The position numbers and the translations under genes were made by a program. A DNA stretch of 19,570 bases from a virus (lineage: Duplodnaviria > Heunggongvirae > Uroviricota > Caudoviricetes), in IMG/VR virus record IMGVR_UViG_2541047862_000007. One strand, written 5' to 3'. Of the stretch, positions 11,750 through 11,880 are shown one piece after another (the stretch's first letter is position 1; each line of letters opens with the position of its first letter). Below the pieces are notes generated by a model. The model saw only the letters and a list, made by a program, of their open reading frames with translations. It ran no database searches and was not told the origin of the DNA.

Positions 11750-11880
11750 AATTTTGCGGGTTACAATCGCACATTTGCGGGTTATAACTGCCGTTTTGCG
11801 GGTTACGTGCGGGTTATTGATTTCCTTTTTAATCATGCAGTTAATTAACTTATACACAGGATAACCCGCATAACCCGCAA
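11750..11880. repeat. Putative replication origin: four direct and two inverted copies of the iteron GCGGGTTA flanking an AT-rich stretch
   Basis: TTTGCGGGTTA at about 11753, 11774 and 11795 (21-bp spacing), GCGGGTTA at about 11809, AT-rich 11817-11858, inverted TAACCCGC at about 11862 and 11871; lies immediately 3' of the primase gene. Confidence 0.6.

Follow-up and report, generated by a model that had tools for sequence, protein, structure and literature searches.

A candidate replicase-proximal origin element beside a DUF927 helicase gene in a Gram-negative PICI-type island of Escherichia coli

Introduction

The replication origin of Gram-negative PICIs lies directly 3' of the replication gene and is composed of two sets of iterons placed around an AT-rich region (Fillol-Salom et al. 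2018, PMC6092414). A plasmid carrying pri and ori of EcCICFT073 was maintained, whereas delta-pri or delta-ori versions were not (PMC6092414). A SaPI ori has an AT-rich centre with at least two iterons on each side in opposite directions (PMC9371898, summarising Ubeda 2007/2012); the C-terminal winged helix of SaPI Reps reads these iterons, 6-12 of which come right after rep (PMC9371898). An iteron ori 3' of the replicase gene, which an earlier note on this DNA had taken as established for PICI-type elements, is thus in the literature for both Gram-negative PICIs (PMC6092414) and SaPIs (PMC9371898). SSB co-located with the origin has also been described (PMC10111431), and Cch is reported to work with a separate polymerase-like primase pair (PMC7581432).

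The DNA analyzed here, referred to throughout as the window, is a stretch of 19,570 nucleotides in which a 125-bp repeat array follows a gene for a 708-aa DUF927 protein. From sequence comparisons we consider it likely that this array serves a Gram-negative PICI-type island at an E. coli tRNA-Gly gene as its replicase-proximal origin element, and that it operates through an initiator-helicase mechanism.

The repeat array

The coordinates of the array and of the surrounding features are collected in Table 1. The array begins 23 nt past the stop codon (11903-11905) of the 708-aa ORF and occupies most of the 210-bp gap between that gene and ssb; every gene in the window lies on the minus strand. 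The earlier note had described, directly 3' of the replicase gene, three repeats at 21-bp spacing, a fourth copy 11 bp further on, and two inverted copies beyond a 40-bp AT-rich stretch. The six copies of the 9-bp word TGCGGGTTA are indeed placed in this way, and the stretch is AT-rich as described; its actual length is 45 nt. The spacings of the phased copies, 21, 21, and 11 bp, correspond to two, two, and one helical turns. TTTGCGGGTTA starts at 11753, 11774, and 11795 with a period of 21 bp, and TT stands ahead of only the first three TGCGGGTTA copies. The four phased copies are opposite in orientation to the tandem pair, giving a 2 + 4 arrangement around the AT-rich centre, where a composition scan gave a GC content of 0.35, as against 0.55-0.65 in the flanking genes.

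Exact matches to GCGGGTTA number eight in the 19.6-kb window, and six of the eight are inside the 125-bp array; the chance level is 0.47 per window, and none of 200 dinucleotide-preserving shuffles gave eight. The two isolated copies (7518-7525 and 8325-8332, both on the plus strand) were considered as a remote site and rejected, being single copies within the 843-aa ORF. They are weakly above chance expectation, are also found in the complete chromosome L001 and the IMG/VR contig L110, and are probably due to chance.

The AT-rich spacer contains a consensus DnaA box, which is retained in both type-A lineages, as TTATACACA or, in the second lineage, as TTATCCACA at the same place. Among related loci (see below), a DnaA box falls within the first 200 nt in 12 of 81, compared with 2% of controls. 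A DnaA box within the spacer fits an origin. An Rfam scan of the array found no RNA family. A promoter and terminator scan of 11500-12100 found no sigma-70-like promoter on the gene strand and no terminator, and the one promoter-like site on the antisense strand is at chance level; no promoter or terminator evidence in that interval separates the array from read-through transcription, a point to be counted against an origin.

Table 1. Positions of the array, of the genes around it, and of the corresponding arrays in L001 (window coordinates unless L001 is named)
Feature	Position	Strand	Basis
TGCGGGTTA, four phased copies	11755-11763, 11776-11784, 11797-11805, 11808-11816	+	direct reading and repeat finding
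AT-rich spacer, 45 nt, ~73% A+T; candidate DNA-unwinding region	11817-11861		composition scan
DnaA box, consensus TTATACACA, in the AT-rich spacer and 3 nt away from the tandem pair	11850-11858	+	
Tandem pair, abutting TGCGGGTTA copies (TAACCCGCA on the + strand), 9 bp apart	11862-11870, 11871-11879	-	reading and repeat finding
Putative exchangeable specificity cassette, tail plus array, unrelated between the window and the near-identical L083	11724..12229		
Gene for the 708-aa DUF927 protein, predicted initiator-helicase (annotated 'DNA primase' / 'DUF927 domain-containing protein')	14029->11903	-	Pfam, PHROG
N-terminal domain, residues 1-160	13550-14029	-	42% identity to EcCICFT073 Pri
C-terminal ~108 residues, variable exchangeable tail, proposed repeat reader (Cch-type HTH / winged-helix-like)	11906..12229	-	
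ssb, directly after the array; replication module	11692->11267	-	Pfam SSB
Integrase (int)	19570->18356	-	
int-alpA RNA motif RF02996, 46.9 bits, between the integrase gene and the next ORF	18244-18311	-	Rfam
AlpA-like ORF	17234->17037	-	
perC, frameshifted pseudogene	~10100-10330	-	RefSeq annotation of the identical region in L001
Accessory region: ORFs of 843, 686, and 925 aa and a 104-aa ORF	2005-9666	-	
IS110-family insertion at the left edge of the window, transposase ORF 1197->1	1..1424	-	NCBIfam IS110 transposase
Arrays in L001, same word	L001 proximal 20157-20280; L001 distal 9550-9701 (outside the window, past its left end)		

Island context

The same DNA is found in complete E. coli chromosomes, in many of them at 100% identity, as an island of ~18 kb beside tRNA-Gly (L001). 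Its gene order is int, alpA, AntA/Bro-N, Icd-like, DUF4222, the DUF927 replicase, ssb, ProQ/FinO, the perC pseudogene, and large ORFs. The layout is that of a Gram-negative PICI, with int, AlpA, and replicase all in one direction on the minus strand, a size of ~18 kb, and a tRNA-Gly site; the layout of the origin region likewise agrees, with two copies, a 45-nt AT-rich spacer, and four copies, starting 23 nt past the stop. Neither a divergent repressor-xis pair nor a separate primase gene is present in this unidirectional AlpA-type island, and no capsid, terminase, or partition genes are found in the window. Other E. coli islands with close relatives of the DUF927 gene carry PICI capsid and decoration genes.

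The accessory ORFs (843, 686, 925, and 104 aa) have no match in Pfam, NCBIfam, or PADLOC; they make up the cargo of the island, possibly a defence or interference system. In passing, 184 nt at 1751-1934 of the window are missing from the otherwise 99%-identical L001.

A 401-bp probe, which partly consists of ssb and the replicase 3' end, was matched in 1657 of 5426 complete E. coli genomes. In phage and plasmid collections no informative DNA match was found: one unannotated 2.2-kb phage record had 73% identity, and plasmids matched only the ssb end of the probe. The probe has matches at up to six places per E. coli genome, which implies that several islands of this replicon family can coexist; such coexistence would favour diversification of the tail/repeat specificity considered below.

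The DUF927 protein

Pfam recognizes DUF927 alone in the 708-aa protein (residues 169-436, E 2.5e-46), which falls in PHROG 1139. A profile built from 21 homologs matches PDB 8tch, 'Pathogenicity island protein' (E 4.7e-16), as well as the SCCmec helicase Cch, 5dgk. Alignment A1 shows no variation among the homologs in the Walker A (G355-K356-T357) or Walker B (D399-E400) residues. Foldseek returned Cch as the best and only significant fold match of the full-protein model, itself a poor model at pLDDT 47. The AlphaFold2 models of the full protein (21 sequences, pLDDT 47) and of the tail (19 sequences, pLDDT 41) were too poor for fold assignment.

The C-terminal tail is mosaic in alignment A1, where proteins that otherwise resemble one another carry clearly distinct tail types. 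Pfam HTH_56, 'Cch helix turn helix', matches this particular tail at an E value of 0.016, below threshold, and matches 17 of 58 diverse tails, the best at 2.5e-5; the Cch alignment extends into residues 651-702, and a profile of the 58 tails found nothing when compared with the PDB by sequence. Because the structure predictions are of low confidence, the winged-helix assignment rests on weak profile matches, and assignment of the tail as a Cch-type HTH domain is best described as weak but specific.

The N-terminal ~160 aa are common with the D5-type Pri of EcCICFT073 (42% identity, E 1e-27). Residues 1-170 gave no Pfam match even at E 10, no fold match, and no meaningful PDB match, the one PDB hit being at chance level (E 0.8). 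This domain occupies the place of the primase domain of P4 alpha and is itself mosaic among relatives. The name primase comes from PHROG and JGI labels, and DUF927 proteins have been counted among PICI 'Primase' genes (PMC10111431). The term primase-helicase in the earlier note can be retained in its second half, on the evidence of DUF927 and the 8tch and 5dgk matches; its first half is a transferred annotation only, as no primase domain or motif was found. Primase activity was considered and is unsupported, no Toprim/DnaG-type or AEP/Prim-Pol domain being recognisable. An invariant 'FAG' of the N-terminal domain resembles the 'AEG' motif of P4 alpha by eye alone; there is no supporting alignment, and the acidic residue would be lacking. 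From these homologies the protein is best called an initiator-helicase, and priming may be performed by a host enzyme.

Fixed geometry and changing word in related loci

Related loci were sampled from the Enterobacterales, 80 of them at one genome per species together with four further E. coli loci; 81 were usable. In 77 of the 81, some 7-mer is found three or more times (median six copies) in the 200 nt that follow the stop. Put another way, at least three copies were present in 95% of loci vs. 11% of random 200-nt windows drawn from the same loci, and at least five in 80% vs. 2% of the control windows. Positions, spacings, and orientations are alike in 74 of the 77 loci, which represent many genera: two or three abutting copies, 9 bp apart, start 21-31 nt after the stop and are followed by an AT-rich spacer (median 48 nt, median A+T 0.78) and then by an opposite-orientation cluster spaced 11/21/(21) bp. 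The word in these positions changes, with 25 distinct top 7-mers among the 77 loci (e.g., TGAACCAAC, TGAGACAAC, GGGACAAG, GAACCGAC, and GACACAC). A comparison of iterons in related islands, which the earlier note had proposed as a check, thus yields one layout and many words, the word following the tail of the replicase.

The latter relationship was evident from pairwise comparisons. The word is shared by 84.5% of pairs with tails at least 70% identical and by 5.3% of those with tails less than 50% identical; none of the 62 pairs in which the core is at least 80% but the tail less than 50% identical share a word, whereas 36 of 46 pairs with a core below 65% but a tail of at least 70% identity do, and since all these pair counts are phylogenetically non-independent, discrete cases were weighted most. 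The replicase gene of the E. coli locus L083 is ~100% identical to that of the window over its first ~1,200 bp and 82-95% identical up to position -326 relative to the stop. Between -326 and +178 sliding identity is no more than ~45%, and from +179 onward into ssb it is again 83-95%. What has been exchanged is precisely the tail together with the array, and type-B GGGACAAG repeats stand at the same positions. L084 and L085 have another N-terminal domain together with the tail type of the window, and their word is TGCGGGTTA. As judged from these comparisons, the repeat word follows the last ~110 residues, the tail, and not the helicase core. The proposal in the earlier note that the replicase binds the repeats gains support from the covariation across the 77 loci and from the L083 exchange of tail and array.

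Sequence variation within a single repeat type was assessed for type A, using 28 different arrays drawn from IMG/VR and E. coli. Copies 2-4 vary at two of 27 columns, compared with 54 of 94 non-repeat columns (Fisher p 1.8e-6), the tandem pair having been left out because it was the search pattern; spacers between type-A copies vary freely. By this measure, purifying selection acts on the type-A repeats when they are compared with the spacers. That the repeats are a product of chance, or are decaying and without function, might be entertained because the island also carries IS110 and a perC pseudogene, but neither the shuffles, which never reached the observed count, nor an architecture kept in 74 of 77 loci across genera, with repeats far less variable than spacers, is compatible with giving this idea more than negligible weight.

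The distance between the repeats and the replicase stop is fixed at 21-31 nt, and that to the next gene ranges from 169 to >700 nt. Most relatives have no ssb downstream and still keep the repeats, which are consequently to be assigned to the replicase gene rather than to ssb. These observations bear on the idea that the repeats are operators, bound by the replicase or another regulator, for ssb and the downstream accessory genes and are not an origin at all. The array does lie in the gap upstream of ssb, and in the full-length versions described below a TATATATA box and a small ORF come straight after the distal tandem copies; an operator role is nevertheless very unlikely in view of the constant distance to the replicase, the retention of repeats where ssb is missing, and the lack of a sigma-70-like gene-strand promoter in 11500-12100.

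In 30 of the 81 loci (e.g., L002, L018, and L046), whatever their word, a further motif, (T)nCCTGGCTGG, comes immediately after the fourth phased repeat, at +148 to +169 past the stop. This CTGGCTGG motif is absent from the window.

A second, distal array

In 45 of the 77 loci, including L084 and L085, a distal half lies within about 340 bp of the proximal half. One further copy comes first, then two or three in reverse orientation at 21-bp spacing; a second AT-rich region of ~85 nt separates these from a run of two to five abutting copies, after which the TATATATA box follows. The window and 32 of the 77 loci have a short form, mostly with no second cluster in 1.4-4 kb of downstream sequence. 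The identical islands that lack the IS (L001 and, from IMG/VR, the contig L110) have their distal half past the accessory genes, 10.5 kb from the proximal one, so that the accessory ORFs sit between both arrays. The L001 distal array comprises three TGCGGGTTA copies at 21-bp spacing, an AT-rich segment of 84 nt, three abutting copies (TAACCCGg TAACCCGCA TAACCCGCA), and then a TATATATA box (ctgttttgtatatatatacg). Homology between the window and L001 ends at window position 1425 (L001 10008), where IS110 starts, 306 nt short of the distal array; from this break, the distal half in the source genome should lie just past the left end of the window. L083 also has a distal array, 2.3 kb downstream, and because it uses the type-B word of that locus, the distal array appears to covary with the tail as well. 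A flank of ~60 nt after the distal array ('ttttgtatatatatacgaaaaattgcattcaggagggggg') is conserved regardless of the repeat word.

Judging from these relatives, the array in the window is only the replicase-proximal half of a bipartite arrangement. The identification of the array as the ori of the element, as made in the earlier note, agrees with the PICI gene order and the conserved layout; it requires modification in that what was taken for the whole would be one half of two. The distal array probably cooperates in cis with the proximal one, by analogy with crr and ori of P4, a comparison taken from the annotated P4 record.

The same analogy can be turned the other way. The proximal array could be an auxiliary cis element bound by the same protein, such as a crr-like enhancer or a handcuffing/copy-control site, with replication starting at the distal array past IS110: the annotated P4 genome has crr directly 3' of the alpha gene and ori 4.7 kb away, the distal array of the IS-free identical islands has its own 84-nt AT-rich region, and it changes word along with the tail. 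We regard this arrangement as unlikely because the proximal array alone conforms to the SaPI rule of at least two opposite iterons on each side of an AT-rich centre, it contains the conserved DnaA box, and the short-form loci mostly manage without a second cluster in the downstream sequence covered. An origin element at the proximal array is the interpretation that we prefer.

Distal-type TGCGGGTTA arrays were also seen beside a large-terminase gene and a 97-aa ORF in L127 (3340-3500) and in about 28 other IMG/VR loci. These terminase-side arrays are at the end of elements inserted at comM, and in contigs that are long enough, the DUF927 gene and proximal array are 8-9 kb away.

Adjacency to the large-terminase gene in some IMG/VR contigs would suit a packaging (pac/cos-like) site, or a partition site, recognized by a terminase small subunit or a centromere-binding protein. 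In contigs with both arrays, however, the terminase-side array is the distal half at the element end; moreover, the word covaries with the helicase tail, the window is without terminase or partition genes, and a search of it for a lambda-type cosN gave nothing above chance. A packaging or partition function is therefore exceedingly improbable, and the array is treated below as part of an origin.

Proposed mechanism and its implications

The 708-aa DUF927 protein would act as an initiator-helicase that loads itself and belongs to the SaPI Rep / SCCmec Cch family. Through a variable, winged-helix-like HTH domain at its C terminus it would read the 9-bp word TGCGGGTTA; protein bound on the tandem pair and on the four opposite phased copies would then bracket the 45-nt AT-rich spacer with its DnaA box. 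The spacer would melt, helicase rings would load, and the excised island would replicate. We infer binding, melting, and use of the site as a start point from the repeats, their statistics, the conserved architecture, the tail/word covariation, and the homologies observed here.

A more extended model is tentative, and we consider it possible rather than probable: the two half-origins, sharing a helicase-specific word, would flank ssb and the accessory region and be bridged by the helicase in the way that P4 alpha bridges crr and ori, and the ~500-bp tail/repeat cassette would be freely exchangeable (at least 25 words) with no cross-talk. If true, the exchangeable specificity cassette lets several such islands coexist in one cell.

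A cis-acting replication site and its likely binding protein would thus be located for a widespread E. coli island that carries three large uncharacterised genes. In addition, the ~25 pairs of tail and 9-bp word at a fixed geometry could reveal how HTH domains of the Cch/Rep type read DNA and help to build orthogonal replicons.

Comparison with known systems

The iterons of plasmids are direct repeats of ~17-22 bp, and a small winged-helix Rep recruits the host DnaB. The present locus resembles the iteron plasmids (pSC101, F, P1, R6K, and RK2) in having repeated initiator sites beside an AT-rich region with a DnaA box; it differs in that the word is of 9 bp and in two orientations, and the predicted binder is itself the helicase.

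In P4, as is proposed here, one protein combines helicase and origin binding, and the 8-bp word of P4 occurs in both orientations in two separate blocks; the 'type 1' repeat block crr, 3' of alpha, and the distant ori resemble the proximal and distal arrays. The DUF927 protein has no similarity to alpha, however, and no Toprim-type primase, D5_N, or Pox_D5 domain, and none of the ORFs scanned corresponded to psu, sid, or delta of P4.

SCCmec Cch (5dgk; HTH_56) is the best structural and profile match, over both the ATPase core and the C-terminal HTH. A polymerase-like primase pair of the kind that accompanies Cch was not found in this island. We know of no iteron origin defined next to cch.

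The SaPI Rep-ori system offers a hexameric AAA+ helicase initiator of the same sequence family (the 8tch match), C-terminal winged-helix/HTH specificity, and iterons that start from the stop codon and run in opposite directions around an AT-rich centre. The window has six copies, 2 + 4, in opposite orientation, and a Rep/Cch (DUF927)-family AAA+ helicase whose C-terminal region is a putative specificity domain, as suggested by the HTH_56 matches and the tail/word covariation. SaPIs are, on the other hand, Gram-positive and have a divergent Stl repressor, and their iterons are 5-6 bp compared with 9 bp here; the protein here has low identity to the solved Rep and an extra N-terminal domain, and the island has no separate pri gene. 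In its replication the island would resemble a SaPI, without being one.

EcCICFT073 shares the backbone order, which is int, alpA, YlcI/Icd-like, DUF4222, replicase, origin gap, ssb, and perC; its record reads int, alpA, YlcI, Icd-like, DUF4222, Pri, a 289-bp gap, a small ORF, SSB, PerC, and capsid, and SSB adjoins the origin. Its origin, too, is immediately 3' of the replicase, and there abutting copies at 9-bp spacing are followed by AT-rich DNA and then by inverted copies. The replicases differ: Pri has D5_N / DUF5906 / Pox_D5, whereas the protein here is DUF927 / Cch-like, the helicase and DNA-binding parts being unrelated. Pri is 41% identical to residues 324-756 of P4 alpha (helicase plus origin-binding), outside the N-terminal primase region of alpha. 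The words differ as well, being CTGTCTACC-type in EcCICFT073 and TGCGGGTTA here; furthermore, three large ORFs here replace the capsid genes, and the origin would be split. On these comparisons, the locus would be a Gram-negative PICI origin driven by a helicase of the SaPI-Rep/Cch type, not by one of the P4-alpha type as in the model element. The origin layout itself has been known since 2018; only the split half-origins and the exchangeable tail/repeat cassette go beyond the descriptions that we found.
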